Below are positions 1-19,594 of a stretch of DNA of 29,842 nucleotides, piece by piece. The notes under the pieces are model-generated. The model saw only the letters and a program-made list of their open reading frames with translations, searched no databases and was not told the DNA's origin. Position 1 is the stretch's first letter. Every line of letters begins with the position of its first letter. Source of the DNA: an uncultured Dehalococcoidaceae bacterium (GTDB lineage: Bacteria > Chloroflexota > Dehalococcoidia > Dehalococcoidales > RBG-16-60-22); the NCBI GenBank assembly GCA_964414605.1, contig CAYPYL010000001.1, forward strand, positions 1 to 29,842, read 5' to 3'. The translations under genes were made by a program, and so were the position numbers.

Positions 1-95
1 AATAGCTTTTCGAGGTTCGTTCCCTTGGGCGGAGCGACCTCGCTGGTAACGACGAATTTTCCGGAACCAAGGGCTTCTTTGAAACGTGATACCAT
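1..95 (-). CDS. metF: Methylenetetrahydrofolate reductase MetF, 5' end only (runs off the window start; absent from ORF track)
   Basis: Manual translation from ATG at 95 gives MVSRFKEALGSGKFVVTSEVAPPKGTNLEKL. This matches the MetF N-terminus and the paralog at 17768 (EFIVTTEVGPPK). A GAGGGGG RBS lies just upstream, and the gene follows metV. Confidence 0.9.
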   Translation of the reverse strand, partial: MVSRFKEALGSGKFVVTSEVAPPKGTNLEKL

Positions 96-156
96 TATCC
101 TAACCCCCTCATAAAAACCTGTATCCTTCCCGTGTCAAAGACCATTTTTAGTTGAA

Positions 157-165
157 ATGATAGCA
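157..165 (-). promoter_or_regulatory. Possible extended -10 (TGCTATCAT) in the metV-metF spacer
   Basis: TG-n-TAnnnT pattern about 60 nt upstream of the metF ATG; pattern match only. Confidence 0.3.
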
Positions 166-176
166 TCCTTACTCCA

Positions 177-821
177 TTAAGTGATGGTGACGGCCCGCGG
201 CCTGGGGACTACGTGGTGATTTCGGGGCGCCTGATACCGGCGCATCAGGTCCAGCCTGCCCTGCTCTTTAAGTCGATTGTAGATGAGCGTCCAGGCGCAG
301 TCCTTCTCCTTATCGACCTCGCACTTGCCGTTATTGGTGCCGCCGCAGGGCCCGTTGACCAGCCCCTTGTGGCAGGCGGTGATGGGGCAGATGCCGGCGG
401 TCTCTCCGAGGATACACTGGCCGCACTGGGCGCAGGCCTCCCGGAAATAACCGGGCGTTTCTTCCACGCCGATGAACAGCGTATCCACCGCCGGAATTAT
501 CGGTTTATCAATATAAAGGTTCATGCGGTGTATACCCAGGGCGCAGCTCATCGATAGAACGGCATCGGCACCGCGGATGAACTGCTCATTTTCCTTCATG
601 GCGGCCTCGGTCATGTCGTCGCAGGCGGTGGGAATTACCATGGCGCCGGTAACGAGCTTGCCCATCTCCTGCAAATGCCCTTTCATCTCTTCTACCTGCT
701 CGATGCCGCCGGTACTGGTCAGGGTGGTACAGGTGCCGCAACCGACCACGAATATCTTATCCAGCCCCTCAAGGCCCCGCTGAATGTCTTCAATCGGTTT
801 TTGTCTTGTTATCGATTTCAT
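177..821 (-). CDS. metV: MetV, Fe-S subunit of MetVF-type methylene-THF reductase
   Basis: N-terminal GCGTC...GG motif and C-terminal 8-Cys block CAQCGQC-x8-CPITAC-x7-PC-x7-C-x7-CAW. Adjacent to metF. RBS GGAGGGG. Confidence 0.9.
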   Translation of the reverse strand: MKSITRQKPIEDIQRGLEGLDKIFVVGCGTCTTLTSTGGIEQVEEMKGHLQEMGKLVTGAMVIPTACDDMTEAAMKENEQFIRGADAVLSMSCALGIHRMNLYIDKPIIPAVDTLFIGVEETPGYFREACAQCGQCILGETAGICPITACHKGLVNGPCGGTNNGKCEVDKEKDCAWTLIYNRLKEQGRLDLMRRYQAPRNHHVVPRPRAVTIT

Positions 822-833
822 AGCTGACCCCTC

Positions 834-3800
834 CTAGCTTTCAAGGTCGCACCTCAAGCACCTTTTTGCCTCCCGGCGGGCTACGTCCTCCGTAAACCCG
901 AGCTCTATCTCTTCAAAGCTGGCTCGCCTTTCCGGGAGCGGCAGCGTCTTCACTTTAGACCTCGGTTTGAGTTCCCAGGACTCCTCCAACTCCGGCGCGG
1001 CCCCTTCGGCAACTTTTACTTTCCGGTCGTAAATCTCGACCCTTGTATCGTCGCCCCTCAAGTACTTATCAATGGCGATAGCCCCTCTCCTCCCGGCGGC
1101 AACAGCCTCGACGACCATGCCCGGCCCGGTCACGAAGTCGCCGCCGGCGAACACGCCGGTTACATTAGTGACCAGGGAGTTGCTATCGACCACCAGGGTT
1201 TCCCACCTTGTACGTTCCAGAGCGCTATCCGCAGGCAGGAAGGAGAGGTCCGGCGCCTGCCCTACGGCGGCGATAACCGTATCCGCCTCCGCGGTGAACT
1301 CCGAGCCACTCACGGGGACGGGCCGCCTTCGTCCGCTGTCATCTGGTGCTCCCAGCGTCATCCTGATGCATTGAAGCCCCGTTACCTTCCAGTTATTGCT
1401 GGTAATCCTGGTGGGGCTGGCGAGAAAACTTATATTCACACCTTCGGCGACGGCTTCATCATACTCGATATCGGAAACCGGCATTTCATCACGTGAGCGC
1501 CGGTAGTAGATACTGGCTTCACCGGCGCCGATGCGGAGCGCGGTCCGGGCGGCATCGAGGGCGACATTACCACCCCCCACGATGGCCACCCGATTGCCCA
1601 CGGTTACTTCCCTGCCCAGTCTGACATCGCGCAGGAACCTCAATCCGTAGTAAAGGCCTTCAATATCCTCGACCTCCCCGGGTATGCCGAGTCGCTGACT
1701 GCGCTGGGCACCCGCCGCGATAAACACCGAGGCGAAGCCGTCGTTTTTCAAGTCCTCGACAGTAAAATTAGTATTGATGGGGGTACCGTATTTAATCTCA
1801 ACTCCCCGCTTGATAATATAGTCGATATCCTGCTGGATGGCGGCGCTCGGCAGGCGGAACTCCGGTATCGCCACCGAAAGCATTCCACCTCCCACGGGAA
1901 GCGCTTCAAAGACCGTTACAGGGTAGCCCTCCTGCGCCAGAAAGTAGGCGCAGGCCAGGCCGGTGGGGCCTGCCCCCACCACGGCAATCTTCTCCCTCTT
2001 GGTTACCGGGAAAGGCTCGATATCACCGGTTTCCGAACCGTGCTCCGCATACCAGTCGGCGGCGAAGCGTTTCAGCGTCCTGATAGCCACGGGTTCATCA
2101 AGATCGCCGCGACGGCACCGTCCCTCACAGGGGTGGTGACAGATCCGACCACACACGGCGGCGAAGGGATTGCGTTCCCGTATGGTCTCGATGGCTTCCT
2201 TATATTCGCCCTCGGCGATATGCGCAACGTACTTGGGGATATTGATACCCGCGGGGCAGGTATGCTGACACGGCGAAATCATCAGGGTCTCGCAGACCGC
2301 AGCCGGGCATTTCTTTTCCCTGATATGCTCCTCGTACTCGCTGCGGAAGTAATTGATGGTAGATAAGACGGGATTAGGCGCCGTCTGCCCCAGGCCGCAG
2401 AGGGAACACTCCTTCACTGTCTTGGCTATCGACAGCAGGGACTCAATATCCTCGTCACGCCCCCTGCCCTCGGTAATCCTGGTAAGAATTTCCAGCATCT
2501 GGCGAGTGCCCAGTCGACAGGGTGTGCATTTCCCGCATGACTCGCTCTGGGTAAAGCTCAAAAAGTATCTGGCCACCTCCACCATGCAGGTGGCCTCGTC
2601 CATGACGACCATCCCACCGGAGCCCATGATGGAGCCGAGTCCGGCAAGCGTCTCGTATTCTATGGGTGTATCGATGAAGCGGGCGGGAATGCAGCCGCCG
2701 GAAGGTCCACCGGTCTGTACCGCCTTAAGCTGCCTGCCGCGCGGAATTCCGCCGCCGATGTTATTAATGATATGGGACAGCGGCGTGCCCATGGGCACTT
2801 CGACCAGACCGCTATTGGCGATTTTCCCGGTAAGAGCAAAAACGGCCGTGCCCTTGCTCTTCTCCGTGCCGATTCCGGCAAACCAGTCGGCGCCTTTTTC
2901 GATAATGACCGGGACAGTTGCCAGCGTTTTTACGTTATTTATAATGGTCGGTTTGCCATCCAGACCGGAGTTGGCCGGGAAGGGTGGTCTTGGGCGGGGC
3001 ATACCGCGCCGGCTCTCGATGGACGCTATCAGCGCCGTCTCCTCGCCGCAGACAAAAGCGCCGGCGCCTTCTTTTATATGGACTGTGAAATTAAAATCAG
3101 TACCGAGGATTCCTTTCCCCAGGAAATTTTTCTCCTGCGCCTGTTCGAGAGCCTTGCGAATGCGTTCTACGGCTAGCGGGTACTCGGCGCGGACATAGAT
3201 ATAGCCTTCACTGGCACCGATGGCGTAGGCGGCTATCGCCAGACCTTCCAGGACGGCATGAGGATCGGCTTCCAGAATGGAGCGGTCCATAAATGCCCCG
3301 GGGTCGCCTTCATCAGCATTGCATATCATGTATTTCTGCTCGCCGGCAGCTTTACGGCAGAATTCCCACTTGGTACCGGTGGGAAAGCCCGCCCCGCCCC
3401 TGCCCCGCAGACCGGAACTTTTTATAATGTCAATAACCTCTTCCGGCGCCATCATAAAGACCACTTTTTTGAGGGACTGGTATCCTCCCCTATTGATATA
3501 ATCGCTGATACGTTCGGGATTTATGTGCCCGCAGTTCCGCAAAACGATACGCTCCTGCTCCTGATAGAATTTAATATCCGCATATCCCGGTATTGCCTCG
3601 CCGGTCACCGGGTCGTGGTAGAAAAGGCGCTCAACCGGCTGGCCGTCGCGGAGGTGAGAAGTAACGATATCGGCGGCATCGTCTGCATCGACATGGGTAT
3701 AGAAGATGCCATCGGGTTCAACCACGACATTAGGTCCCTGCTGGCAGAAGCCGTGACAGCCGGTGAAGTCTATCTCGGCTCCGGTTACTCCCTGCTTTTT

Positions 3801-3893
3801 CAGTTCCGCCTTGAGAGCTTTGTAGACGTTGTCGCCGCCACCCGAGACACATCCGGTACCCCGGCAGACTAATACCTTGCGTTTTCGCGGCAT
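834..3893 (-). CDS. NuoF/HydB-like flavoprotein fused to a C-terminal GltD/NfnB-like FAD/NAD(P)H oxidoreductase domain (1019 aa from ATG 3893)
   Basis: N-terminal [2Fe-2S] domain (VCRGTGC...GCHGFCQQGP), GLRGRGGAGFP, NADEGDPGAFMDR, GAFVCGEETAL and CGKCTPC...CSLCGLG. These are followed by PCQHTCP, NPFAAVCGRIC, GAGPTG, GGGNVALD, YRRS, FAGGD and EAKRCLRC. ATG 3893 has RBS GGAAGGAG and lies 1 nt after the nuoE stop. Confidence 0.9.
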   Translation of the reverse strand: MPRKRKVLVCRGTGCVSGGGDNVYKALKAELKKQGVTGAEIDFTGCHGFCQQGPNVVVEPDGIFYTHVDADDAADIVTSHLRDGQPVERLFYHDPVTGEAIPGYADIKFYQEQERIVLRNCGHINPERISDYINRGGYQSLKKVVFMMAPEEVIDIIKSSGLRGRGGAGFPTGTKWEFCRKAAGEQKYMICNADEGDPGAFMDRSILEADPHAVLEGLAIAAYAIGASEGYIYVRAEYPLAVERIRKALEQAQEKNFLGKGILGTDFNFTVHIKEGAGAFVCGEETALIASIESRRGMPRPRPPFPANSGLDGKPTIINNVKTLATVPVIIEKGADWFAGIGTEKSKGTAVFALTGKIANSGLVEVPMGTPLSHIINNIGGGIPRGRQLKAVQTGGPSGGCIPARFIDTPIEYETLAGLGSIMGSGGMVVMDEATCMVEVARYFLSFTQSESCGKCTPCRLGTRQMLEILTRITEGRGRDEDIESLLSIAKTVKECSLCGLGQTAPNPVLSTINYFRSEYEEHIREKKCPAAVCETLMISPCQHTCPAGINIPKYVAHIAEGEYKEAIETIRERNPFAAVCGRICHHPCEGRCRRGDLDEPVAIRTLKRFAADWYAEHGSETGDIEPFPVTKREKIAVVGAGPTGLACAYFLAQEGYPVTVFEALPVGGGMLSVAIPEFRLPSAAIQQDIDYIIKRGVEIKYGTPINTNFTVEDLKNDGFASVFIAAGAQRSQRLGIPGEVEDIEGLYYGLRFLRDVRLGREVTVGNRVAIVGGGNVALDAARTALRIGAGEASIYYRRSRDEMPVSDIEYDEAVAEGVNISFLASPTRITSNNWKVTGLQCIRMTLGAPDDSGRRRPVPVSGSEFTAEADTVIAAVGQAPDLSFLPADSALERTRWETLVVDSNSLVTNVTGVFAGGDFVTGPGMVVEAVAAGRRGAIAIDKYLRGDDTRVEIYDRKVKVAEGAAPELEESWELKPRSKVKTLPLPERRASFEEIELGFTEDVARREAKRCLRCDLES

Positions 3894-3894
3894 A

Positions 3895-4380
3895 TTACTC
3901 CTTCCCACTCTTGCCAAATAGTCGGGCTACCTTCTTGGGATTCATGTCGCCGTGGGCTTCTTTGTTTATCATGAGATTCGGTGCCAGCGCACAGACACCG
4001 ATACAGGCGACCGTTTCGAGGGTATATTCCATGTCGTCGGTGGTTTCCCCCTCCTCAACGCCCAGGTACTGCCTGACCAGTTTCAGGATAGTCTTGCCGC
4101 CGCGCACGTGGCAGGCGGTTCCCCGACAAACCCGTACGATATTTTTACCCCGGGGATGGGTGTAAAGCTGCTCATAAAACGTAATCACCGCCTGTACCTG
4201 GCTGGGGAACAGCCCCAAGGCGGCGGCTATACGTGGTATGGCTTCCGGGGGAATATAGCCGACCTTCTCCTGGATCTCCTGGGTCAGGGGTATCAACGCC
4301 CATCTTTCACCCCGGTAACCCGCGATAATTTTATCTATCTGTCTCATGTTTACCGGGGGTGCTTTCTTTGCCTTATCCAT
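3895..4380 (-). CDS. NuoE/HydC-like [2Fe-2S] subunit
   Basis: VCRGTACHVRGG and VACIGVCALAP ligand motifs; TFY motif; 8-nt overlap with the upstream gene. Confidence 0.92.
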   Translation of the reverse strand: MDKAKKAPPVNMRQIDKIIAGYRGERWALIPLTQEIQEKVGYIPPEAIPRIAAALGLFPSQVQAVITFYEQLYTHPRGKNIVRVCRGTACHVRGGKTILKLVRQYLGVEEGETTDDMEYTLETVACIGVCALAPNLMINKEAHGDMNPKKVARLFGKSGKE

Positions 4381-7063
4381 TATCGGCAGTCCTTTCCAGT
4401 CTGACCGCGCATGATTTGAGCGCCGGCGTTTTGACCTGACGGTCGAGTACGGCAGGGAACAGGCCGTAAACGGGAGTGTTCGGGTAAGACATGGGCATAT
4501 AAAGCAGGCCGCGCGATAACGTGTTATTAACTTTAGCGGTTGCTGTTATCTCTCCCTGCGCCGAGATGACCTTTACGGTAGCGCCGTCGATTATGCCCGT
4601 TTCGGCGGCATCGTCATCGCTTATTTCCAGAAACGCTTCCGGAGAAAAACGGTTCAGCCGTCCCGACCGCGTGCTGCGCGCGCCGGTGCCAAAGTGATAA
4701 CGACTGGAGCCGACTATTAAAGTATGGGGATAGCCGTTGCTTTCCGCTTCCTGCGGAGGCGTATACTCCACGGTTAAAAACCGACCGAAACCGCTGGGGA
4801 AAAGTCCTTTATACAAACGCCGGTTCCCGTAATAGCCGTCTTCCTCTTCGGCCAGTTCCGGTTCTATAACGTCGCTGTCAACGCGGGCGGCATGATGGCA
4901 GAACGGCACCGATTCCTCGATTTCATTAAGCACTTCCTGTTGAGAGTCATACCGCAACGGGTAGTCCATCTTACCGGAGAGCTCCAGTATTATTTCCGCA
5001 TCAGGAAGGCTCTCGCCAACAGGCTCGATGGCCTTCGTTAGCTGCTGGACCCTCCCCTCGAAATTGGTGAAGGTGCCGTATTTTTCAGCGAAGCTGGCAG
5101 CCGGCAGCACCACCGAAGCCAGCGCGGCGGTTTCGGTCAGGAACATATCCGTCACCACCAGTAAATCGAGCCTCGCCAGGGCTTCCTTGACCAGGGACGT
5201 TTGAGGGAAACTCACCGCCGGATTTTCTCCCATGACGAACATCGCCTTCACCTTTCCAGTTCCCGCCGCCTCTATCATCTCCCAGGCTGTCAATCCGGCG
5301 TTCACCGGCAAGTCGCATCGCCAGCGCTCCTCGAACGTCTGCCTGTCTTGAGCGTTATTGATGTTCTTATAACCGGGCAGGAAATCGGGCAGAACGCCCA
5401 CGTCGCATGCTCCAAGGGCATTGTTCTCCCGTTGCAGGGCAAAAATCCCGCCGTGCCTGCCGGCATTCCCGGTGAGCATATTCAAATTTCCGATGGCGAT
5501 TACGGCATCGGTTCCGGTGACGTATTGCGTTATACCGTTCCCGTAGACGATAGAGGTTTGTTCGGCGCCGGCAATAATACGTGCGGCTTTCTGCATGTCT
5601 TTCCTGGGAACGCCCGTGATTTTCTCTGCGTATCCGGGTTCCTGCTGCTTCAGACTTTGAGCCCACCGCGCGAAGTTATCCGTCATACGGGTAACGAACT
5701 CTATATCCATTTTCCCCTCTTCGATAATCACCCTGGCAAGTTCGTTGAGCAGGGCTACATCGGTACCCGTGCGGGGTTTGAGCCACATATGGGCGAACTG
5801 CGATAGCGACGTCCGGCGCGGGTCTACGACGATTAAACCGGCACCTTTATTCCTGACGGCTCGCTTGATGGCATAAGCTACGGCGGGAGCCGATATTTCC
5901 GGGTCGGCCCCGATGACCATTATCACCTGTGATTTTTCCAGCGAATCTATAGTTCCGGTAGTGCCGGCGTAGCCGACGGATGTACCCAGGCCCACCCGGC
6001 TCGCGGCGCTGTAAAGACGACTGCCGTTATCAATGTTGTTGGTGCCCAGGACGACGCGAGTGAACTTCTGGAGAAGATAATTTTCCTCATTGGTGCACTT
6101 TGAGGAGCCGAATACGGCGATAGCGTCGGCGCCGTGGTTCTCTTTTATCCGGTTGAGTTCACCGGCCACCCGAGAAAGCGCTTCTTCCCAGGTAGCCTCC
6201 TGAAACTGGCCATCTACTTTAACCTGCGGATGAAGCAGTCGCTCCGGACTGTGAATAAAGTCGTACCCGTAACTCCCCCGCACGCACAGAGTGCCGGCGT
6301 TCACCTGCCCTTCCGGGGGAGGCCTGGAAAATATTACCCTGCCGTCCTTGACTCCCAGACAAACGGTGCACCCGCAGCCGCAATAAGGACATATCGTGGT
6401 GACCGTTTCCGTCGCCGTACCGCTATAAGCCCTTTCCTTCTCCATCAGGGCGCCTGTCGGGCAGATAGCCACGCAGGTGCCGCAGAAGGTGCACTCCGAT
6501 TTTTCCAGCGGCATATCGTTCAGGGTCGCCGGCCTGACCGCAGCGCCGCGGTCGATATAGTCGATAGCCCCCTCCACGACCAGCTCCTGGTCAGCCCTGA
6601 TGCACTTGCTACACATGATACACTTGGAGAGGTCGCGCTCGATAAACGAATTGACTTCTTCGATTATGTCCAGCTGCGGAATTCTCTGGAACTCGACGAG
6701 GCCGATTCCCATTTCCGCCGCCAGCTTGCGTAACTGACAGCTATTTCCCTTATCGCAAACCAGGCAGGAATCGGGGTGGCTGGCGAGGAGGAGTTTTAAG
6801 ATTTTTTTTCGGTGCTCCACCACCCGCGGTGAGTTGGTCTTGATAACCATTCCCGGCGATATAGGCGTCACGCAGGAAGCCAGCAAAGCACCGTTGCGTT
6901 CGTCCTCCACCAGGCAGAGACGGCAGGCTCCTACCGATGCCAGATTAGGGTCGTAGCAGAGAGTAGGAATATATACCCCGGATTCCCGCGCCAGGTCCAG
7001 GATAGTAGTGCCCGGGTAACCGCTTACCTCGACGTCATTCAGGACAATCGTAATTGCTTCCAC
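4373..7063 (-). CDS. FdhA/NuoG-like molybdopterin-oxidoreductase-family subunit with a non-canonical active site
   Basis: [2Fe-2S] (CYDP...GACRLC...SC), HPDSCLVC-x5-C, 2x[4Fe-4S] domain, CPYCGCGC...LC cluster, GSSKCTNEENY, NNID, LPAASFAEKYGTFTNFEGRVQ and a molybdopterin-dinucleotide-type C-terminal domain. GTG start directly after the upstream TGA. Confidence 0.85.
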   Translation of the reverse strand: MEAITIVLNDVEVSGYPGTTILDLARESGVYIPTLCYDPNLASVGACRLCLVEDERNGALLASCVTPISPGMVIKTNSPRVVEHRKKILKLLLASHPDSCLVCDKGNSCQLRKLAAEMGIGLVEFQRIPQLDIIEEVNSFIERDLSKCIMCSKCIRADQELVVEGAIDYIDRGAAVRPATLNDMPLEKSECTFCGTCVAICPTGALMEKERAYSGTATETVTTICPYCGCGCTVCLGVKDGRVIFSRPPPEGQVNAGTLCVRGSYGYDFIHSPERLLHPQVKVDGQFQEATWEEALSRVAGELNRIKENHGADAIAVFGSSKCTNEENYLLQKFTRVVLGTNNIDNGSRLYSAASRVGLGTSVGYAGTTGTIDSLEKSQVIMVIGADPEISAPAVAYAIKRAVRNKGAGLIVVDPRRTSLSQFAHMWLKPRTGTDVALLNELARVIIEEGKMDIEFVTRMTDNFARWAQSLKQQEPGYAEKITGVPRKDMQKAARIIAGAEQTSIVYGNGITQYVTGTDAVIAIGNLNMLTGNAGRHGGIFALQRENNALGACDVGVLPDFLPGYKNINNAQDRQTFEERWRCDLPVNAGLTAWEMIEAAGTGKVKAMFVMGENPAVSFPQTSLVKEALARLDLLVVTDMFLTETAALASVVLPAASFAEKYGTFTNFEGRVQQLTKAIEPVGESLPDAEIILELSGKMDYPLRYDSQQEVLNEIEESVPFCHHAARVDSDVIEPELAEEEDGYYGNRRLYKGLFPSGFGRFLTVEYTPPQEAESNGYPHTLIVGSSRYHFGTGARSTRSGRLNRFSPEAFLEISDDDAAETGIIDGATVKVISAQGEITATAKVNNTLSRGLLYMPMSYPNTPVYGLFPAVLDRQVKTPALKSCAVRLERTADNG

Positions 7064-7879
7064 TCAAGCTGTCTCCCCATCCTGTACCTTCGGCTGGAGA
7101 GATTCAATCCACGACTGGTCGCCACGCGCCACGGAACGGATACCGGTCAGCAGCCGGGAACTGGCGGCGGCTTTGGGGATAAACCCCACCGCCCCCACCT
7201 TTTTACTGGCAAGGACATTCTCCTCGTCGTCGTACTGCGTCAGCATCAGGACCTTGGCGGTCTTTTGTTTCTGGCAAATTTCACGGGCGGCGTCCAGTCC
7301 GTTCATCACCGGCATGATAATGTCCATCACCACGACATCCGGTATGAGCTCCATAGTCTTCTCCAGCGCCTCTTTCCCGTTGACGGCCTCCCCGACGACC
7401 TGCATATCCCGCTGCAGCGTAAGCACGGATTTTATCCCGTCCCTTACCACCGCGTGGTCATCGACAATCAGCACCCTGATTTTCTTGGTAGCCCTGTCCA
7501 GCAGGGCCTGGATGCGGGGTACCAGGGCAACCGGCTCGACGGGCTTGGCGAGGAAATCTTCGGCGTCTATCTGCATACCCTCATCCATTCTCCAACCCTT
7601 GAGCAGTTGCTTTTCCGGCGGAGCATTGATAACCATGATTGGTAGATTGCCAAACCCCAGGGTCTGCTTCATCCATTTGTGGAACAGAAAGGCATCGCCG
7701 CGGGGCATAATCGTGCCCAGGACAATCGCGTCGGGCTCGTGAGAGCGTACCGACTCTTTAGCCTCTTCCTGGTCGCCGGCGGTGACGACGGTATACCCTA
7801 CTTTTTCCAGGGCCTTCTTTACCTCTTCTAAAAATTCTTCTTCGTCATCCACTATCAGAATCGTTTGTTCTTTTTCCAT
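7064..7879 (-). CDS. Tandem pseudo-receiver + NarL-type receiver protein with no output domain (271 aa from ATG 7879)
   Basis: First REC domain ILIVDDE...IVLGTIMP...KP; second REC domain VLIVDDH...VVMDIIMP...LTQYDD...PK. No HTH. RBS AAAGGAGG before ATG 7879. Confidence 0.88.
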   Translation of the reverse strand: MEKEQTILIVDDEEEFLEEVKKALEKVGYTVVTAGDQEEAKESVRSHEPDAIVLGTIMPRGDAFLFHKWMKQTLGFGNLPIMVINAPPEKQLLKGWRMDEGMQIDAEDFLAKPVEPVALVPRIQALLDRATKKIRVLIVDDHAVVRDGIKSVLTLQRDMQVVGEAVNGKEALEKTMELIPDVVVMDIIMPVMNGLDAAREICQKQKTAKVLMLTQYDDEENVLASKKVGAVGFIPKAAASSRLLTGIRSVARGDQSWIESLQPKVQDGETA

Positions 7880-7930
7880 TTTTTGCCTCCTTTCACCGGA
7901 AGCGCCTATAGTTACCACTATATGATGCAT

Positions 7931-7963
7931 AGTATAAACAGGGAATAGGGGATTTACCCCGAT
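7931..7963 (-). promoter_or_regulatory. Candidate promoter of the left redox operon: -10 TATACT (7936-7931) plus imperfect palindrome ATAGGGGATTTACCCCGAT (7945-7963)
   Basis: Read directly. The palindrome overlaps the expected -35 position and recurs at 14837-14855. Confidence 0.5.
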
Positions 7964-8082
7964 AACCGGCAGACTAAACCCCTGAATTTACGAAAATATA
8001 CCCTGACAATGGGATTAACGAAAAATGAACGGACGGCGTTACGGAGGAGCGGCAGTTTGTATGATTCCGGGTCAGGCGAAGA

Positions 8083-9970: not shown

Positions 9971-10024
9971 TTTTCCCCACACTCCTCCCCTCAACTATAT
10001 TACGGCAACTATAACGTATCAATT

Positions 10025-10054
10025 AGCCTATAAAAAATATGTGTGTCTTGTCAA
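10025..10054 (-). promoter_or_regulatory. sigma70-like promoter for the kinase/regulator pair (TTGACA-N18-TAGGCT)
   Basis: Perfect -35 at 10054-10049 with a weak -10 at 10030-10025. Confidence 0.4.
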
Positions 10055-10087
10055 TCGTGAAAGGGGAACTCTAACAGCCTGCATAGA

Positions 10088-12195: not shown

Positions 12196-12217
12196 TACAT
12201 GAACACCTTAATTCCAT

Positions 12218-12226
12218 ATTATATCA
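12218..12226 (-). promoter_or_regulatory. Extended -10 promoter (TGATATAAT) of the ABC operon
   Basis: Perfect TG-n-TATAAT about 22 nt upstream of ATG 12195. Confidence 0.65.
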
Positions 12227-12451
12227 TATTGTTAAGAACGCCAGTTACTTAATAACACGTCATCATCCGGCGTACCCCACGCTGTTGCATACACGATGAA
12301 AACCAGTTTTCGAACCGGAATTTGGCTTGGTGACTTAACGCGGGAGTCTCCAGCCAGACCGTGCTAGAGAAAAAGTAGAACTCTCCATATATTTTGAATT
12401 TAGCGCTTACCCCGGCCCCCCCCAATCAGGCTATAGTTACGCTAACCAATC

Positions 12452-12480
12452 TTGACAAAGGGCGATTCTAGCAGTACCTT
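12452..12480 (+). promoter_or_regulatory. sigma70-like promoter (TTGACA-N17-TACCTT) for the right-hand kinase/regulator pair
   Basis: Perfect -35, 17-nt spacer and a TAnnnT -10 just upstream of the kinase start. Confidence 0.55.
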
Positions 12481-12492
12481 TATTCATACAAG

Positions 12493-14121
12493 GTGGATGT
12501 GGAGATGGGTACGAAAAAAGCAGAGACGTCCGAGCCTATAGACTCCGGGCTGAAAGTTGACCTACAGGAAATAATCGATGCCGTAGAAGACGAGCTTCTG
12601 CTAGTCGACCCCGATTACCGTGTCAGGTTCGCTAATGCAGCTATGCTCAATAAATACCAGACCAAAGGCGATTCGCCTATCGGCAAGTTGTGCTATAAGG
12701 TCTTTCATAACAGGAACACTCCCTGCCATGAACCTTTTTGGGACTGCCCCCTGCAACAGGTCGTTGAAAGCGGGAACATGACGACGGTTATTCATCCTGT
12801 CAACCAGCCCGGAGTTCATGGTTACGTAAAAATCACGGCATATCCTATTTTTGACAAGCAGGGCAAGACCAGAGCCATGGTGGAATTGCGGAGGGATGTC
12901 ACCGCGGAAAGAGAACTGGAAACGCAGATTCTCAGGCGACATCATCAACTTTTAGCATTGAGTCATATCTCGGGTGCCGTGAGCGGACTGTATGATCTGG
13001 ATACCATTTTAAAGACTGCACTGGATGATGTGCTAGAGCTTGTTAACAGCGACATCGGAGGCATTTTACTCTTTGATGAAGAGTCCCAGACCTTGAGCTA
13101 TCGGGTACAGCGTGGATTATCCGCAAAATACACCGAAGAGGCTAAAATACCCCTGGGTAAGAGCATCGCGGGACAGGCGGCAGAAATCGGCGAGCCCATA
13201 ATAGTGGAGGATATTTCCAAGGACCCGCGTATCACCCGGCCGGAGCTAGTTATCGCCGAGGGACTCAAAGGATTTGTGAGTATTCCCCTTAAGGCGAAGG
13301 AAAAAGTGACCGGGGTAATGAATATCGCCAGCCACGTGGCAAACCGTTTTGCCGCCGACGAGGTCTCTTTACTCAAGTCGATTGGCGATTATCTGGGTAC
13401 GGCAATTGAGCAGGCAAGACTCTACGATAGGCTGGCGCAGGCGGGAGAAAGATATCGGGCGCTTCTACAACACGCCCTGACGGCACAGGAACAGGAACGA
13501 AAGAGGATAGCCCGCGAATTACACGACGACACCAGCCAGGCGATTACCAGCCTGACCTTAAGCCTCCAGGCGATAATGACGATTGCGGAGATGAAGGGTA
13601 TCGGGGATGCCGAATTTATAGAGAAGGTCAAAGCGACGCACTCCTTCGCGGTTCACGCCGGCCATGAAATCGTGAGGCTAATGAAAGAACTCCGGCCCAG
13701 CCTGCTGGATGAGCTCGGTATGCCGGCGGCGATACACCGTTACGCCAAGGACACGCTTCAGTCTCATGGAATCAACGTATCTTCTGAATTTAATGGTACG
13801 GAAAAGAGGTTCCCGCCAGAGGTCGAAGTGACTCTTTTCCGGGTGGCGCAGGGACTAATCGGCAATATCCTGGAACACTCCGAAGCGAAGAATACCCTGG
13901 TTAAACTGGAATGTGATGAAAATGAGTGTACGCTGTATATAGAGGACGATGGCAAAGGCTTTGATGTGAAGAAACTAACGCGGGTTGACCCCAGCGGAAG
14001 GGGGGCGGGTTTGTTCACTCTCAAGGAGAGGGTAAGTCTGGCCGGAGGACACTGCCATATCGACTCCCGTCCGGGGCAGGGCACCAAGGTAACCGTAAAA
14101 ATACCGCTTGTGGAAATTTAA
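12493..14121 (+). CDS. Cytoplasmic PAS (Cys-motif) + GAF + HisKA_3 + HATPase sensor histidine kinase
   Basis: PAS (VDPDYRVRFAN...GKLCYKVF...RDVT), GAF (IPLKAKEKVTGVMNI), H-box ERKRIARELHDDTSQ, DDGKGF, GAGLF, GQGT. Confidence 0.92.
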   Translation: MDVEMGTKKAETSEPIDSGLKVDLQEIIDAVEDELLLVDPDYRVRFANAAMLNKYQTKGDSPIGKLCYKVFHNRNTPCHEPFWDCPLQQVVESGNMTTVIHPVNQPGVHGYVKITAYPIFDKQGKTRAMVELRRDVTAERELETQILRRHHQLLALSHISGAVSGLYDLDTILKTALDDVLELVNSDIGGILLFDEESQTLSYRVQRGLSAKYTEEAKIPLGKSIAGQAAEIGEPIIVEDISKDPRITRPELVIAEGLKGFVSIPLKAKEKVTGVMNIASHVANRFAADEVSLLKSIGDYLGTAIEQARLYDRLAQAGERYRALLQHALTAQEQERKRIARELHDDTSQAITSLTLSLQAIMTIAEMKGIGDAEFIEKVKATHSFAVHAGHEIVRLMKELRPSLLDELGMPAAIHRYAKDTLQSHGINVSSEFNGTEKRFPPEVEVTLFRVAQGLIGNILEHSEAKNTLVKLECDENECTLYIEDDGKGFDVKKLTRVDPSGRGAGLFTLKERVSLAGGHCHIDSRPGQGTKVTVKIPLVEI

Positions 14122-14124
14122 CGT

Positions 14125-14778
14125 ATGAAGAAAATAAAGGTATTGATAGTTGATGACCATACCCTGGTACGGGCCGGAATACGTTCCCTGCTGATGCTCG
14201 TCGATGATATCGAAGTAGTCGGCGAGGCATCGGACGGTAAAGAAGCCCTGACAAAGGTAAGGCAACTCATGCCTGACGTGGTACTCATGGACCTGGCAAT
14301 GCCGGTCATGGGCGGACTCGAAGCCACACGACGTTTACGAAAGGAATTCCCCGGCATAAAGGTACTGGCACTGACACAATATGACGATAGCGAATATGTT
14401 ATTCCCATCATCGAAGCAGGTGCCAGCGGTTTTGTAACTAAGATGTCGGCGTTTACGGAGCTTGCCGCGGCTATCGAAGCCGCCAATAGAGGAGAATCCT
14501 ACCTGTCTTCAACTGCCGCCACGGCTCTTGTCGAGGAATATCAGCAGAAAATACCATCTAACGGCGAACAGGACCCTTACCAGCAGCTAACGGATAGGGA
14601 GAGGGAAGTGATTAAGCTGGTTGCGGAAGGGCATACCAGCCGTGAGATTGCCGAGATACTTATCGTCAGCCCCAAGACGGTGGAGTGGTATAAAAGCAGC
14701 TTGATGAACAAGCTGAACCTCCGCAGCAAGACCGACCTGATTAAGTATGCCATCCGCAAGCGGATAATAACAATATAG
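14125..14778 (+). CDS. NarL/FixJ-family response regulator (REC + LuxR-type HTH)
   Basis: VLIVDDH, PDVVLMDLAMP, LTDREREVIKLVAEGHTSREIA, SPKTVEWYKSSLMNKL. Confidence 0.95.
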   Translation: MKKIKVLIVDDHTLVRAGIRSLLMLVDDIEVVGEASDGKEALTKVRQLMPDVVLMDLAMPVMGGLEATRRLRKEFPGIKVLALTQYDDSEYVIPIIEAGASGFVTKMSAFTELAAAIEAANRGESYLSSTAATALVEEYQQKIPSNGEQDPYQQLTDREREVIKLVAEGHTSREIAEILIVSPKTVEWYKSSLMNKLNLRSKTDLIKYAIRKRIITI

Positions 14779-14836
14779 CCGCATCACAGTGAGCCCCTTA
14801 AACCCAGCGATAGCCAGTACTTTTCCCGGTTGAGAA

Positions 14837-14855
14837 TTAGGGTATTTACCGGTAT
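14837..14855. promoter_or_regulatory. Candidate response-regulator operator TTAGGGTATTTACCGGTAT
   Basis: Shares TAGGG-N-ATTTACC-NNN-AT with 7946-7963; lies upstream of the right redox operon. Confidence 0.5.
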
Positions 14856-14920
14856 ATATTCCAGAGCCGTACCCCCTTGCTTTCCGTTGCATTTCCTATT
14901 GCCTGGTTCCGGCGGTCTGG

Positions 14921-14929
14921 TGGCATAAT
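14921..14929 (+). promoter_or_regulatory. Possible extended -10 (TGGCATAAT) of the right redox operon
   Basis: TG-n-CATAAT about 57 nt upstream of ATG 14987. Confidence 0.35.
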
Positions 14930-14986
14930 TAAGTAGTATATTAACCGTCGATTGTTGCCACTCAACAGAGATTGAGGTGTTTGCTG

Positions 14987-17095
14987 ATGAATGTGGTTAA
15001 CAAGAAATCGCCGGAAAATTATCAGGAAAGCGCTCTAGACCACAGCCTGGTACCTCCCTGCCAGGATGTCTGCCCCCTGCATATGGATATCAGAGAATAT
15101 GTCGGGCTGGTTTCTCAAGGCAGGATTATGGAGGCGCTCCAGGTCATCAGAACGGGCAACCCTTTCCCATCTATTTGCGCTTACGTATGCACGCATCCCT
15201 GTGAAGAAGCCTGCCGGCGCTCTCAAGTGGATAAACCCCTCGCCATCCGCTCCCTGAAAAGGTTCGCCGTGGAATTCGGCGGCGACCGGATGGTGCAGGC
15301 TGAAGCTGAGACCAAGTATACGGAAAAGGTAGCCATTGTGGGCTCCGGGCCAGCCGGTCTGGCCTGCGCTTACTATCAAAAAAAAATGGGCTATCCGGTG
15401 ACTATACTCGAAGCCCATTCCGAACTCGGAGGCATGCTCCGTGTAGGCATCCCCCAGTATAGACTCCCCCGTGAAGTCCTGGATATTGAAGTCCAGAGAC
15501 TTACAAGCATGGGAGTTGAAATCAGGACGAATACCCGGGTGGTGTCCCTGGACCTGCTCTTTGAGCTTGGTTACAAAGCTATCTTCATCACCATCGGCGC
15601 TCATCAGAGTCTCAGAATGGGGATAGAGGGAGAGGAGAGCCCCGGGGTAATAGACGGCGCGACTTTTCTCCGCGAGGTTAACCTCGGGTTGAAGCCGTCC
15701 CTGGGGAGAAAGGTTGCCGTGGTCGGTGGGGGGAACGTAGCCATTGACGCGGCGCGTACAGCAACCCGTCTGGGTGTCAAAAAGGTAAGAATCCTCTACC
15801 GTCGCACCCGCGCGGAAATGCCAGCCGACCCCCAGGAGATAGAACAGGCCTTGGAAGAGGGGATTGAAATCGTTTACCTGGTAATTCCGACGAAAGTTAA
15901 AAGGATAAATAAGAGATTGACGGTAACCTGCGTTAGAATGGAACTCGGCGATCCTGACGAGAGTGGTCGGCAGCGACCGTTACCGGTCAAGGGCAGCGAA
16001 TTTGATGAGAATTATGATACCTTAATCGGTGCTATCGGGCAGGCGCCCCAGACCCCGGACGATTTTGGAGTCCGCATCGGCAGGGGTAGCACGATTCAGG
16101 TCGATCCTGTCACCCTCACCACCAATAGAGCCGGGGTCTTTGCCGGAGGTGATGCCGTCACCGGCCCGGCTACAGTGACCGAAGCTCTGGCGGCCGGCAG
16201 ACTTGCGGCGTCACGCATCGATGATTATCTCCAGCACCGGTATCCACTGCCGATAAGAGATACTAAAGAGAAACTTAGCGGCGACCTCAAGCCGGAAACG
16301 ATAGAGATGATAAAAAAGGTCGAGCGGGTCGAGCCGCCGAGTCTGGATGGCGAAGACCGGACTAAAGACTTCGAAACGGTTGAACTTGTTTATGGATGGG
16401 AACAGGCTATTAACGAGGCGCGGAGGTGCCTGCGATGCGGCGTGGGTGTGGAAATCCTGTTTCAGGATAAGTGTGCCACCTGCCTTACTTGCTTGAGGGT
16501 ATGTCCGTATCACGTGCCTTATCTTGATGAAAGCGGTACCGTTCGTATACCTGCTGACCAGTGCCAGGCTTGCGGTATATGTGTGGCTGAATGCCCTGCC
16601 AAGGCGATAGTCTTGAGAAAGCCGTTTGACCGGCGCCAGGTGAATGATGAGTTGAGTCACACCATAAAACTGGTTGCCGAATCGAAAAATAAGCCGCTTA
16701 TTATTGGTTTCTGTTGCCAGTATGGCCTCTTTGGTACCGGGACTCTGGCCAGGTTGTGGCGGGGTGGCAAAGCGGGCGTCAGTATCGTGCCGGTTCTCTG
16801 CGTTGCCAAGGTGGAGGAGTCCCACCTGTTGGCTGCCTTTGAGATGGGTGCCGAAGGAGTCTTCATCGCGGGGTGCGGGGAGCAGTGCGCTCGCGAAAAT
16901 ACCACCTACTGGGTGCAGCAGCGCGTGGCGAAAGTCAGGAAGATAATGAAGCCGATTGGCCTCGAGCCCGAACGACTCCAGGTTTTCGCTCTCGGCACTA
17001 CCACCGATGACCCCGCCGAAGAATTGGATAAATTCGTTGAGCAACTAAGCGCCCTCCGTTTGACTTCAGTAATAAAGGGGGAGGTGAAAAGTTGA
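14987..17095 (+). CDS. GltD/DsrL-like FAD/NAD(P)H oxidoreductase + 2x[4Fe-4S] ferredoxin + MvhD/FlpD-like domain fusion
   Basis: PPCQDVCP, NPFPSICAYVC, GSGPAG, IPQYRLP, GGGNVAID, YRRT, FAGGD, EARRCLRC, then CATCLTCLRVCP and CQACGICVAECP, then IIGFCCQY...VLC...GAEGVFIAGCGEQC...GLEPERL. SD GAGGTG favours ATG 14987. Confidence 0.88.
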   Translation: MNVVNKKSPENYQESALDHSLVPPCQDVCPLHMDIREYVGLVSQGRIMEALQVIRTGNPFPSICAYVCTHPCEEACRRSQVDKPLAIRSLKRFAVEFGGDRMVQAEAETKYTEKVAIVGSGPAGLACAYYQKKMGYPVTILEAHSELGGMLRVGIPQYRLPREVLDIEVQRLTSMGVEIRTNTRVVSLDLLFELGYKAIFITIGAHQSLRMGIEGEESPGVIDGATFLREVNLGLKPSLGRKVAVVGGGNVAIDAARTATRLGVKKVRILYRRTRAEMPADPQEIEQALEEGIEIVYLVIPTKVKRINKRLTVTCVRMELGDPDESGRQRPLPVKGSEFDENYDTLIGAIGQAPQTPDDFGVRIGRGSTIQVDPVTLTTNRAGVFAGGDAVTGPATVTEALAAGRLAASRIDDYLQHRYPLPIRDTKEKLSGDLKPETIEMIKKVERVEPPSLDGEDRTKDFETVELVYGWEQAINEARRCLRCGVGVEILFQDKCATCLTCLRVCPYHVPYLDESGTVRIPADQCQACGICVAECPAKAIVLRKPFDRRQVNDELSHTIKLVAESKNKPLIIGFCCQYGLFGTGTLARLWRGGKAGVSIVPVLCVAKVEESHLLAAFEMGAEGVFIAGCGEQCARENTTYWVQQRVAKVRKIMKPIGLEPERLQVFALGTTTDDPAEELDKFVEQLSALRLTSVIKGEVKS

Positions 17096-17775
17096 TAGTA
17101 GCGGAGCAAAAGCCTCTGGAAGATATAATACGCATGATTGGCCCTTATCAACGAGTATTGATACTCGGTTGTGGCACCTGCATGACGGTATGTGACGCCG
17201 GTGGTGAGCGTGAGGTCTCTTTTCTCCACGACGCATTACAGCTGGCGCAGACAAGGAGTGGTGAAGGTGCTCATACCTTTACCGAACATACCGTGAAAAG
17301 GCAGTGCGACCCGGAGTTCCTGGAGCCGCTTGCCGAAAGAATAGCTGATTTGGACGTAATACTATCGCTGGGTTGTGGCATCGGCGTGCAGGCTATAGCG
17401 GAACGTTTTGCGGATATGCCGGTGCTGCCCGGCGTTAACACCTCTTTCATGGGTATGACTAAAGAATCGGGGGTCTGGGATGAGCGCTGCGCCGCTTGCG
17501 GTGAGTGCCGGCTGGAAGACACTGCCGGCATATGTCCAATCACCAGGTGTACTAAAGGCATACTCAACGGTCCCTGTGCCGGTACTAAGAACGGTAAATG
17601 TGAGGCTAATAAGGATATGGACTGCGCCTGGATTTTAATTTATCAGCGCCTGGAAAGATTACAGCAACTGGACAAGATGCGCCGGTATTACGCTCCCCGG
17701 AATTACCGGGCAATCCCCAGACCGAGAAGAATCACGATTAACGTAGAGACTGCGGTGGGAGAAAGCGATGGCTAA
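17092..17775 (+). CDS. metV: MetV, second copy
   Basis: GCGTCMTVCDAGG, RQCD, GCGIG and 8-Cys block CAACGEC...CPITRC...PC...C...CAW. TTG start overlaps the upstream TGA. Confidence 0.92.
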   Translation: MIVAEQKPLEDIIRMIGPYQRVLILGCGTCMTVCDAGGEREVSFLHDALQLAQTRSGEGAHTFTEHTVKRQCDPEFLEPLAERIADLDVILSLGCGIGVQAIAERFADMPVLPGVNTSFMGMTKESGVWDERCAACGECRLEDTAGICPITRCTKGILNGPCAGTKNGKCEANKDMDCAWILIYQRLERLQQLDKMRRYYAPRNYRAIPRPRRITINVETAVGESDG

Positions 17776-18670
17776 TTCGTTATTTGAAGAGAAACTCAAC
17801 TCCAATGAATTTATCGTGACAACGGAGGTGGGGCCTCCCAAGAGCGTCGATGTCACGGAACTGGTTCACCATATCAAGCTGCTCAAGAATAAAGTCGATG
17901 CTATAAATATCACGGACCATCAGAGCTCCGTGATGCGTTTCCCCTCGATAGGTGGCTGTTTACTGGTGAAGGAACTCAAGGGCGAGCCAATCCTCCAGAT
18001 GACCTGTCGTGACAGGAACCGTCTGGCGCTGGAGGCTGAGCTTCTCCTGGCTTACTCCAGAGGTATTACCAATGTGCTCTGTCTAACGGGGGACTCGATT
18101 GACGTGGGAGACCATAAAGATGCCAAGCCCGTTTTCGACCTTGATTCCGTGCAGTTATTGAAAATGGTAAAGATCATGGAATCCGGGGTCGATATGGGAG
18201 GCAATGAACTGGGGGCAGCCCCGAAATTTTGTACCGGCACCTCCGTCCACCCGGAGGCAGACTTCATCGAGCCGCAGCTTATTAAATTCGACAAGAAAGT
18301 CGCTGCCGGCGCACAATTTTTTCAGACCCAGGGTATATTTGACCTGGCGAGCCTCCGCCGATTTATGCAGTATGCCTCACAGTTTGACGTTAAAATCCTG
18401 GCAGGTATCATCGTCCTCTCATCGGCCGGCATGGCCCGCTATATGAATAACAATGTCCCCGGTATAATTGTCGCCCAGCCACTTATTGATGAACTGGCTG
18501 CGGTGGAAAAAGGTAAGGGGCTCCAGAAAGGGATTGAAATTGCCGCAAGGTTTATAAAAACTATCAAGGAAGAAAACCTGTGTCACGGCGTGCATATCAT
18601 GGCGGTGGGTAATGAAGGTATAGTGCCCGATATTTTATTGGCTGCCGGGCTTGTTGACAAGCGCGGCTAA
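17768..18670 (+). CDS. metF: Methylenetetrahydrofolate reductase MetF, second copy
   Basis: TTEVGPP, LQMTCRDRNR, LTGD, GDH..AKPVFDLDS, AGAQFFQTQ, GVHIM. 8-nt overlap with metV. Confidence 0.93.
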   Translation: MANSLFEEKLNSNEFIVTTEVGPPKSVDVTELVHHIKLLKNKVDAINITDHQSSVMRFPSIGGCLLVKELKGEPILQMTCRDRNRLALEAELLLAYSRGITNVLCLTGDSIDVGDHKDAKPVFDLDSVQLLKMVKIMESGVDMGGNELGAAPKFCTGTSVHPEADFIEPQLIKFDKKVAAGAQFFQTQGIFDLASLRRFMQYASQFDVKILAGIIVLSSAGMARYMNNNVPGIIVAQPLIDELAAVEKGKGLQKGIEIAARFIKTIKEENLCHGVHIMAVGNEGIVPDILLAAGLVDKRG

Positions 18671-18739
18671 GGTGCCTTTGGTCAGGTATATTACCGGGTG
18701 GCCATAATGGCTATATTCACGGTAGTGGAGGAGAATGAG

Positions 18740-19594
18740 ATGAGTAACGATAAGACAAAAAAGACAGTGAAATCCGGGATAAAGAAAGAAAGCAAACGAG
18801 CTAAGAAGGAAAAAGTCCTGATTATTGACGACGAACCCACTTTTGTGGAGTCATGCCGGCGTACTCTGGAAGCTAAAAACTTCAAGGTTACGACAGCATC
18901 GAGCCAGGCCCAAGCCAAGGAGGTGATAAGAAAAGAACCGAATCTTATTATACTAGGTACGATGGCACCGGCCGGGCAGGCGTTTGCCATGTATCAGTGG
19001 CTGGGGCAGCATCCGAGGTATAAGGAAATACCATTACTCGTCATCGACGCCCGCTACGAAGAGCGACCGATCAGGGGATGGCGGAGGTTCGAAGGTTTGC
19101 AGGTGGACGGCGACGAATATTTGTTTAAACCCATTGAGCCGGCCTCGCTTATTCCCCGTATTCAGAGCTTGCTTGAAGCCATTACCAAGAAAATAAGAGT
19201 GCTTGTCGTCGATGACCACACCATGGTCAGGACCGGGATATGTTCGGTTGTCTCTCTGCAAAAGGACATGGAGGTGGTCGGCGAAGCAGTCGACGGGCGT
19301 GATGCTTTTGATAAGGCGTTACGCCTCCTACCGCACGTTGCCCTGGTGGATATCGTCATGCCGGAAATGAGCGGCATCGAAGCGACCAAGCTGATACATC
19401 AAGAGTGCCCGGAGACTAAGGTCCTGGTTTTGACCCAGTATGATGAAGAAGAAAACATGATTATCGCCAAACAATCGGGGGCTTATGGTTTCATTCCTAA
19501 AAAAGCTGCCAGCTCTGACCTCATCAGAGGCATAAGATACGTGAGCCAGGGTAAATATTATCCGACGTCTTTTGCCGAGCTAGTTATTAAGTAG
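18740..19594 (+). CDS. Second tandem pseudo-receiver + NarL-type receiver protein with no output domain
   Basis: VLIIDDE...IILGTMAP...KP then VLVVDDH...VALVDIVMP...LTQYDE...PK. SD GGAGGAG before ATG 18740. Confidence 0.88.
   Translation: MSNDKTKKTVKSGIKKESKRAKKEKVLIIDDEPTFVESCRRTLEAKNFKVTTASSQAQAKEVIRKEPNLIILGTMAPAGQAFAMYQWLGQHPRYKEIPLLVIDARYEERPIRGWRRFEGLQVDGDEYLFKPIEPASLIPRIQSLLEAITKKIRVLVVDDHTMVRTGICSVVSLQKDMEVVGEAVDGRDAFDKALRLLPHVALVDIVMPEMSGIEATKLIHQECPETKVLVLTQYDEEENMIIAKQSGAYGFIPKKAASSDLIRGIRYVSQGKYYPTSFAELVIK

Follow-up and report, generated by a model that had tools for sequence, protein, structure and literature searches.

A stretch of 29,842 nucleotides that makes up the whole of contig CAYPYL010000001.1 (assembly GCA_964414605.1; here called the window), from an uncultured bacterium of the Dehalococcoidaceae, encodes two gene sets for MetVF-type methylenetetrahydrofolate reductases (MTHFRs), each with its own two-component system, on either side of a small ABC transporter operon. 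We propose that these sets are two independent, anciently diverged and self-contained regulated cassettes which lie next to each other by chance around an unrelated ABC exporter, and we put the probability of this reading at roughly 0.68. The left arm (1-9994, minus strand) and the right arm (12493-19594, plus strand) are about 2.5 kb apart. Both comprise a soluble GAF/HisKA_3 kinase, a NarL-type regulator, a GltD-type flavoprotein, MetV, MetF and a pseudo-REC/REC protein, as mapped from six-frame open reading frames (ORFs) and Pfam and NCBIfam scans of the window:

1-95, minus strand: left metF, first 31 codons, clipped at the contig end (translation MVSRFKEALGSGKFVVTSEVAPPKGTNLEKL)
177-821, minus strand: left MetV, 214 amino acids (PF12225/DUF5981, E 1.6e-36)
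834-3917, minus strand: left NuoF(HydB/BfuB-like)-GltD fusion, 1027 amino acids (Pfam Complex1_51K, NADH_4Fe-4S, Fer4_20, Pyr_redox_2)
3895-4380, minus strand: left NuoE/HydC-like 2Fe-2S subunit, 161 amino acids (PF01257, E 1.4e-46; NCBIfam NuoE / formate dehydrogenase (FDH) gamma)
4373-7063, minus strand: left FdhA/NuoG-like subunit of the molybdopterin family, 896 amino acids (Pfam Fer2_4, NADH-G_4Fe-4S_3, Molybdop_Fe4S4, Molybdopterin, Molydop_binding)
7064-7930 (listed ORF), minus strand: left pseudo-REC/REC, probable start 7879 (Met18; 271 amino acids), two PF00072 stretches
7880-8082, minus strand: left promoter/operator region 5′ of the enzyme operon, with blocks conserved in 7 sequences
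8083-8736, minus strand: left NarL/LuxR-type response regulator, 217 amino acids (PF00072 and PF00196, REC plus GerE)
8708-9994, minus strand: left soluble GAF-HisKA_3-HATPase kinase (Pfam), probable start ATG 9970
10088-11239, minus strand: ABC-2 permease (Pfam)
11305-12195, minus strand: DrrA-like ABC ATPase (Pfam)
12196-12492, no strand: divergent intergenic region between the ABC ATPase and right kinase genes, with TTGACA at about 12453
12493-14121, plus strand: right soluble PAS(3-Cys)-GAF-HisKA_3-HATPase kinase (Pfam)
14125-14778, plus strand: right NarL/LuxR-type response regulator, 217 amino acids (Pfam)
14779-14971, plus strand: right promoter/operator region 5′ of the enzyme operon, with blocks conserved in 38 sequences
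14972-17095, plus strand: right GltD-2x[4Fe-4S]-MvhD fusion flavoprotein, 707 amino acids (Pfam Fer4_20, Pyr_redox_2, Fer4, FlpD)
17092-17775, plus strand: right MetV, 227 amino acids (PF12225, E 4.7e-35)
17768-18670, plus strand: right MetF, 300 amino acids (PF02219, E 1.6e-34; MTHFR part of NCBIfam PRK08645)
18698-19594, plus strand: right pseudo-REC/REC, two PF00072 stretches

Judged from their proteins, the two arms are copies of a single kind of self-contained cassette that diverged long ago. In BLASTP comparisons of left with right, identity is 48% for the kinases (E 1e-129), 59% for the regulators (E 1e-95), 48% for the REC/REC proteins (E 2e-95), 42% for MetV (E 2e-62) and 43% for the GltD modules (E 3e-121). 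The right MetF shares 64-65% identity with the full-length left-type MetF found in relatives, a PF02219 protein of 294-297 amino acids that follows MetV at loci L063, L072 and L074, and whose N-terminus is 90-94% identical to the left metF stub of the window. For MetV, kinase and REC/REC, identities within orthologue groups (50-99%) exceed those between groups (35-56%), and the split of the arms therefore predates the sampled lineages; ranges for the regulator were not used, being mixed with cross-group matches. At the DNA level, a repeat scan of the window found likeness between the paralogues in short stretches only (72-83%), and nothing to suggest recent duplication, gene conversion or the ends of mobile elements. 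In both arms metV lies directly 5′ of metF, with overlaps or short gaps, and the kinase (HisKA_3 and HATPase_c) and regulator (receiver and GerE helix-turn-helix, with the acceptor Asp motif seen in the translations) are encoded together.

An earlier, sequence-only reading of this DNA had given both arms the same parts list, and the ORF map and domain scans bear this out, with paralogue identities of 42-65%; its statement that the paralogues are diverged and not a recent duplication agrees with the identities within and between groups. Domain content likewise confirms that the arms differ in electron-input module and sensor input. The "pseudo" receiver also stands, as REC1 keeps its acidic pair but carries Gly in place of the phospho-acceptor in every orthologue from either arm, and so does the cysteine-bearing PAS domain, in which 29 right-arm kinases share C67, C78 and C85 without exception. 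The picture of a mirror image diverging from a central transporter is correct only in part. The arms do lie on opposite strands, share their parts and enclose the ABC genes; however, the REC/REC gene opens the left enzyme operon but closes the right one, three redox genes in the left arm stand against one in the right, the left metF is a stub, and the ABC operon is codirectional with the left arm, so that 12196-12492 is the sole divergent point.

Relatives, almost all of them metagenome-assembled genomes (MAGs) of Dehalococcoidales/Dehalococcoidia, retain each cassette. A survey of one genome per species, queried with the right 707-residue protein, returned 46 loci, for which synteny was assessed by tblastn of all window proteins. 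The right cassette was present at all 46, with kinase, regulator, GltD/MvhD, MetV, MetF and REC/REC on one strand as far as the contig reaches, at 56-93% identity; it is complete, with six genes, at 24, and REC/REC follows metF at every right-arm locus that extends that far. One of the 46 loci is L033, a 4.6-Mb contig of a Thermoleophilia MAG, with a complete right-type cassette including kinase, regulator and REC/REC (56-78% identity) at 7467-14500; its presence in this actinobacterial class suggests transfer of the cassette as a unit. The left cassette keeps the order kinase, regulator, REC/REC, FdhA-like, NuoE, NuoF-GltD, MetV, MetF in relatives, and is colinear in four metagenome contigs (L047, L048, L050, L051), in eight independent assemblies of the closest relative (L063-L070; REC/REC 93% identity), on a 1.1-Mb contig (L072) and on MAG contigs L073 and L074.

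The same loci separate the two cassettes from each other and from the transporter. Neither a left arm nor an orthologue of the ABC genes was found at the 14 right-arm loci with 6-7.5 kb of upstream sequence or, among the closest right-arm relatives, at four loci with 3.7 kb; conversely, about nine left-arm loci with 7-8 kb upstream, closest relatives included, contain no right arm and no ABC genes (closest relatives being those with 86-93% REC/REC identity). The genes upstream of the left cassette are unrelated from case to case, namely DnaE, MFS, Lit and hypothetical proteins in one and amylase and ROK in another. In the closest right-arm relatives (86-88%), hydantoinase/URO-D or GlcD-like/CCG genes lie upstream and Opp permease genes downstream, and clustering of flanking ORFs found no gene common to more than three of the 46 right-arm loci. 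No related locus has a match to the ABC permease or to a 2761-residue protein encoded beyond the right arm, and the matches to the ABC ATPase, at four loci, are distant ABC ATPases only (24-35% identity), none of them adjoining a cassette kinase. The ABC-2 transporter is a neighbour that belongs to neither cassette. Having the two cassettes side by side is peculiar to this genome and not conserved, and the mirror layout is without evident functional meaning.

Both cassettes are also found in MAG RBG_13_51_18, on separate contigs (MGMR01000025 and MGMR01000047), and since that genome keeps both too, a reading in which one cell has two MTHFR systems with different sensing is reasonable. The two contigs break near the kinase, L073 starting within the kinase gene and L006 990 nucleotides upstream of it; assemblies may fragment there through strain variation or paralogous sequence close to the kinase genes. 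No right-arm orthologue on the 1.1-Mb contig L072 was found among the 120 matches listed. In L077, one assembly of a close right-arm relative, the regulator gene is called in two pieces (5382-6027; 160 and 56 amino acids), which is a frameshift or an assembly error, the gene being intact in the sister assembly L076.

The enzymes of the two arms share a GltD-MetV-MetF core and differ in what surrounds it. Both GltD modules carry a GGGNVA...YRR motif, probably of the NADPH type. In the left fusion, an N-terminal thioredoxin-like 2Fe-2S domain precedes an FMN/NADH module and a GltD FAD/NADPH module; in PDB, residues 14-546 match best to HydB-type subunits of bifurcating hydrogenases and residues 547-1024 to the GltD-containing large subunits of Stn-family/NfnABC-type entries (8oh5_C, 9bov_A, 9n5u_A), and the GltD module matches the NfnAB-type 4ylf_B at E 7.2e-93. 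The 896-residue left protein was considered as a formate dehydrogenase and rejected on its active-site residues, as it has no catalytic Sec/Cys, His or Arg. Its motif GSRLYSAAS stands against CSRYCQSPA in Bacillus subtilis YjgC, and ALQRENNALG against PLRGHNNVQG, with the Arg of the LRGxNNVQG motif displaced; the catalytic Sec/Cys-His site is Tyr-Ser/Asn, and the Tyr is kept in 11 orthologues. We conclude from these substitutions that the left FdhA-like subunit is very probably not a formate dehydrogenase. Its nearest non-orthologous homologues (37-40% identity; L052-L059) have an in-frame TGA followed by His, within HCAR[TL]*H, and this TGA is read as selenocysteine. In five of these (L054, L055, L057-L059) the gene order is NuoE, NuoF, FdhA; L056 has NuoF then FdhA, and L052 and L053 have FdhA only.

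The right 707-residue protein has the same best PDB matches (8oh5_C, 9bov_A, 9n5u_A), matches the GltD-like subunit of NfnAB-type enzymes (4ylf_B, E 3.6e-83; 5jca_L, E 2.2e-77), and in addition matches MvhD chains in PDB (PF02662, E 1.5e-20). The MvhD module is found in the right arm only and is absent from the left. NCBIfam HdrA2/HdrA models cover only about residues 495-695, the ferredoxin and MvhD part, and no CCG-domain (HdrB/HdrC) gene was found in either arm or in the orthologous cassettes; the right complex is therefore not of the Hdr type. The thioredoxin-reductase-like FAD domain of HdrA was not found in the right arm either, its flavin domain being GltD-type. In a search of cluster representatives, about two dozen other 50%-identity clusters share the length of this GltD-ferredoxin-MvhD protein with a full-length match, so the fusion is not unique.

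Based on these assignments, we propose that the GltD module would be the NADPH entry point that feeds MetV and MetF in both arms. The right complex would be a minimal GltD-Fd-MvhD-MetVF enzyme, and the left complex may couple MetVF to a Stn/Bfu-like NADH/NADPH/ferredoxin module in which the FdhA-like subunit would serve as a scaffold and not as a formate dehydrogenase. A more far-reaching version, in which the arms represent two previously undescribed classes of GltD/NfnB-based, flavin-based electron-bifurcating (or confurcating) MTHFR in Dehalococcoidia, one minimal and NADPH-linked and the other Stn/Bfu-coupled, each switched on by its own cytoplasmic redox or metabolite sensor and tuned by its REC/REC protein, is a tentative suggestion that we regard as rather doubtful. 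If it were true, a cell carrying the two could select the way in which the thermodynamically awkward methylene/methyl-tetrahydrofolate step is coupled to its redox pools.

Each arm also appears to be equipped for its own regulation. Neither kinase has hydrophobic segments, so the signals would be cytoplasmic, sensed through GAF alone by the left kinase and through the three-cysteine PAS domain plus GAF by the right one. Promoter-like elements precede the kinase gene in both arms (in the left arm its own TTGACA / TATAG-type elements in 9995-10087), and a second, conserved promoter region lies between regulator gene and enzyme operon in both. In the right arm, 38 sequences share the blocks CCAGTAnTTTCCCC, AGGGTATTTCCC (14839-14851) and ATTTCCTATTGCC, followed by CATAAT; in the left, seven sequences share CAGGGTAnATTTT, TTCAGGGGTTTA and GGGGTAAATCCCC (7948-7960), followed by a TATAGT -10-like element, and the region also holds a conserved block AGGGTATATTTTC (7992-8004). 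A scan with AGGGTAWWTYCCC places four of nine window matches (three distinct sites) inside the two promoter regions. The listed ORF of the left REC/REC begins 17 codons early and thereby covers the TATAGT element and the leader (7880-7930); its orthologues begin MEK... behind GAAAGGAGG, and both start and ribosome-binding site were taken from the orthologue alignment. The regulators' recognition helices, KTVEWYK in the right arm and KTVEGHK in the left, differ at group-invariant positions, which suggests insulated circuits. In the scheme we favour, each kinase would phosphorylate its regulator, which may then bind GGGTAnnTCCC-like boxes and turn on the enzyme operon.

The REC/REC gene is a member of the regulated enzyme operon in both arms. 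REC2 is closest to VraR/NarL/DesR receivers and 49-60% identical to the receivers of the regulators, with 60% between left REC2 and the left regulator's receiver. At two right-type loci of distant relatives the gene is kept where the regulator is not seen: in L045 (338-6419) a PAS-GAF kinase gene is followed within 43 nucleotides by the flavoprotein gene, without a NarL-type regulator, and in L037 (5377-9985) there is no kinase or regulator within 5.3 kb upstream. These variants link REC/REC more closely with the enzyme than with the regulator. Receiver-only proteins can act as phosphate sinks or kinase inhibitors in two-component systems (analogous cases: PMC9430884, PMC10368727), and REC/REC resembles them in having no output domain, a canonical REC2 close to the cognate receiver and a gene inside the regulated operon, an arrangement that would suit negative feedback. 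It differs in its N-terminal pseudo-receiver with the Gly acceptor site and in a conserved LGTxxPxGxxF motif. By analogy we infer that REC/REC is a feedback element, either a phosphate sink or a kinase binder, so that the co-induced protein would take phosphate from, or bind, the same kinase via REC2; direct control of the enzyme is equally possible.

How far the layout itself can be trusted depends on the assembly, since a chimera that joins sequence from two organisms, or from two separate loci, at the ABC transporter could have brought the arms together. Left-arm G+C content is 0.56 against 0.50-0.52 in the rest of the window. However, the left cassette is also GC-richer than its flanks in relatives, so the offset is intrinsic to the genes, and we rejected it as a sign of chimerism. 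Public unitig graphs branch at 11930-12095, inside the ABC ATPase gene, with depth up to about 40x; the branching stems from conserved nucleotide-binding motifs common to other community members, and this stretch is likely a place prone to mis-assembly in such samples. The arrangement is also unique to this genome: no second assembly of the whole was found, the left MetV has no match in the assembly index, and the ABC ATPase is otherwise found there only on one 1.2-kb contig. Against a chimera, Logan unitigs from several salt-marsh runs cross the junction of left kinase and permease (9431-10125, 9549-10126, 10049-10234) and tile the region from ATPase to right kinase (11543-12374, 12080-12291, 12234-13025, the last two overlapping and both from one run). 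These junction-spanning unitigs come from four independent runs, with no joints reported. The window derives from a salt-marsh population of Dehalococcoidales, and the metagenome runs that contain the sequence are from salt marsh and marine sediment; the runs listed for the two arms included no RNA runs. An assembly artefact, a concern that the sequence-only reading had raised, is thus not supported. The layout is probably not a chimera, an explanation to which we give very little credence. An integrated switch island, in which both arms and the central transporter belong together and their co-localisation is functional, for instance through shared regulation or reciprocal repression, would fit two arms 2.5 kb apart on one contig with different sensors, as well as the retention of both cassettes by at least one further genome; operator-like boxes are similar between the arms, which makes cross-regulation conceivable. 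We nonetheless consider it improbable, as arms and transporter are unlinked in every informative relative, the closest included, kinase, regulator and promoters are separate for each arm, and the recognition helices differ by group. The mirror island as a unit is not supported because of this lack of linkage, an outcome that the earlier reading had itself named as counting against it, and the separate promoters and group-specific helices argue against its proposed switch selecting between two MTHFR isoenzyme complexes.

For the left enzyme, the main competitor to a coupled complex is that NuoE, NuoF-GltD and the FdhA-like protein make up a separate Stn-type NADH-dependent ferredoxin:NADP+ transhydrogenase that shares no more than a transcript with an ordinary MetVF and forms no joint complex with it. 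Their domain set is identical to that of StnABC/NfnABC, including an FdhA-like subunit without catalytic residues, and in Sporomusa ovata metVF is followed immediately by the stn genes, yet Stn, annotated as a formate dehydrogenase, purifies alone and oxidises no formate (PMC7483475). What makes this unlikely in our view, if still deserving of serious attention, is the gene arrangement: GltD is encoded directly upstream of metV in both arms (a 12-nucleotide gap in the left, a 4-nucleotide overlap in the right), and the GltD-MetV-MetF core is what was duplicated. The right GltD protein is without NuoE/NuoF partners and therefore cannot be a Stn enzyme there, and in all relatives the entire left set has a single dedicated regulator. 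There is, in addition, a small chance that the FdhA-like subunit is active on formate or another small substrate and that this oxidation is coupled directly to methylene-tetrahydrofolate reduction. Conservation of the substituted site among orthologues suggests selection, and the subunit matches solved FDH alpha subunits at E 1e-156 to 1e-159; on the other side stand the replacement of the Sec/Cys ligand by Tyr and of the neighbouring His by Ser or Asn, the displaced Arg, the Sec-His retained by related genuine enzymes, and StnC, a formate dehydrogenase by annotation that has no formate activity (PMC7483475).

Several observations weigh against our reading of two independent cassettes with dedicated enzymes. 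Unitig depth at the junctions is about 3-7x and the pieces are short. The flank visible per locus is 7-10 kb, so linkage over a larger distance remains compatible with the data, and both cassettes together are shown in one other MAG only. Window-wide, the operator box has 9 matches against 5.9 expected, which is not significant, and it is where they lie and how well they are conserved that gives these boxes weight. The FdhA-like protein remains very similar to FDHs, scoring 652.2 bits against TIGR01591, below the cut-off of 666.25, and catalysis with an unusual ligand would be compatible with its sequence. Finally, that the redox subunits associate with MetVF is predicted from gene order, overlapping stop and start codons, and conservation.

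One close comparison is with Hdr-type MTHFR (HdrABC-MvhD-MetVF), which likewise has a MetV and MetF core with accessory iron-sulfur flavoprotein genes in one operon, and whose MvhD module recurs in the right arm. In Moorella, HdrA carries an N-terminal GltD domain as NAD(P)H site and an MvhD-like domain; the right 707-residue protein resembles these two regions, and the GltD-type NAD(P)H/FAD domain is a likely pyridine-nucleotide site in the cassettes as well (PMC9430772). Unlike the Hdr type, both arms are without the HdrA thioredoxin-reductase-like domain and HdrB/HdrC (CCG) genes, GltD, ferredoxin and MvhD are joined in one 707-residue protein, and the cassette includes a dedicated two-component system and a REC/REC gene. 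NfnAB is similar in that the GltD modules match its GltD-like subunit, which suggests an NADPH-binding, possibly bifurcating FAD and two [4Fe-4S] clusters. However, Pfam scans found no PyrK-like small Nfn subunit encoded in either arm, and MetV/MetF would take the place of the high-potential partner.

Acetobacterium woodii MetVF-RnfC2 is an NADH-dependent MTHFR in which an extra RnfC2 subunit feeds MetVF. The cassettes share with it a MetVF core fed by an extra subunit of the NuoF/RnfC flavin-nucleotide type (PMC5736913), but have no RnfC2, the input being GltD-type, alone in the right arm and with NuoE/NuoF/NuoG-like subunits in the left. The left arm resembles Stn/NfnABC of the Bfu family (PDB 8oh5, 9bov, 9n5u) in its NuoE-like subunit, its NuoF-like subunit with an extra N-terminal 2Fe-2S domain, its GltD-like NADPH module and a NuoG/Fdh-like subunit without FDH catalytic residues, as well as in the proximity to metVF seen for stn in S. 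ovata (PMC7483475). It differs in that GltD is fused to the C-terminus of the NuoF-like part and not inserted in the NuoG-like subunit, in that its Fdh-like subunit is separate and much less degenerate, and in the position of its genes upstream of metVF, in a tight operon with a dedicated regulator. The nearest report to the cassettes themselves is the Anaerolineae single-cell genome DscP3, also from the Chloroflexi, in which metV/metF occur as two diverged sets (about 41-43% similarity) and one metF is flanked by putative "phoBR" two-component genes (PMC5736913). That cluster is of the Hdr type and from another class of the phylum, and GltD fusions, REC/REC, NarL-type regulators and cassette structure were not described for it. 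The main text of the Bfu classification paper makes no mention of tetrahydrofolate, MetF or MTHFR (PMC9304861), and no published description of these cassettes was found in the literature searched.

New here are MetVF-type reductase gene clusters that combine GltD-based electron input with a dedicated two-component system and a receiver-only protein. The electron donor and energy coupling of MetVF-type reductases are a long-standing open point in the bioenergetics of the Wood-Ljungdahl pathway (PMC8760232, PMC9430772), and the cassettes offer two compact, strongly conserved subunit sets with a GltD-type NADPH flavoprotein as obvious partner of MetV. As one of the sets has three enzyme genes only, they are attractive for heterologous expression. 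Control of a central one-carbon enzyme by a dedicated two-component system with a conserved receiver-only protein is unusual, and the lasting interest lies in the cassettes themselves and not in their pairing.

Rfam and tRNA scans of the window gave no match. The right cassette is followed by about 1 kb (19595-20602) with two short ORFs (99 and 87 amino acids) without a Pfam match. Beyond it, at 20603-28888 on the minus strand, lies the gene for the 2761-residue protein, which has six right-handed beta-helix stretches and one NosD-like stretch and is probably a giant secreted or surface protein; the gene contains six internal DNA repeats, each of roughly 1 kb.

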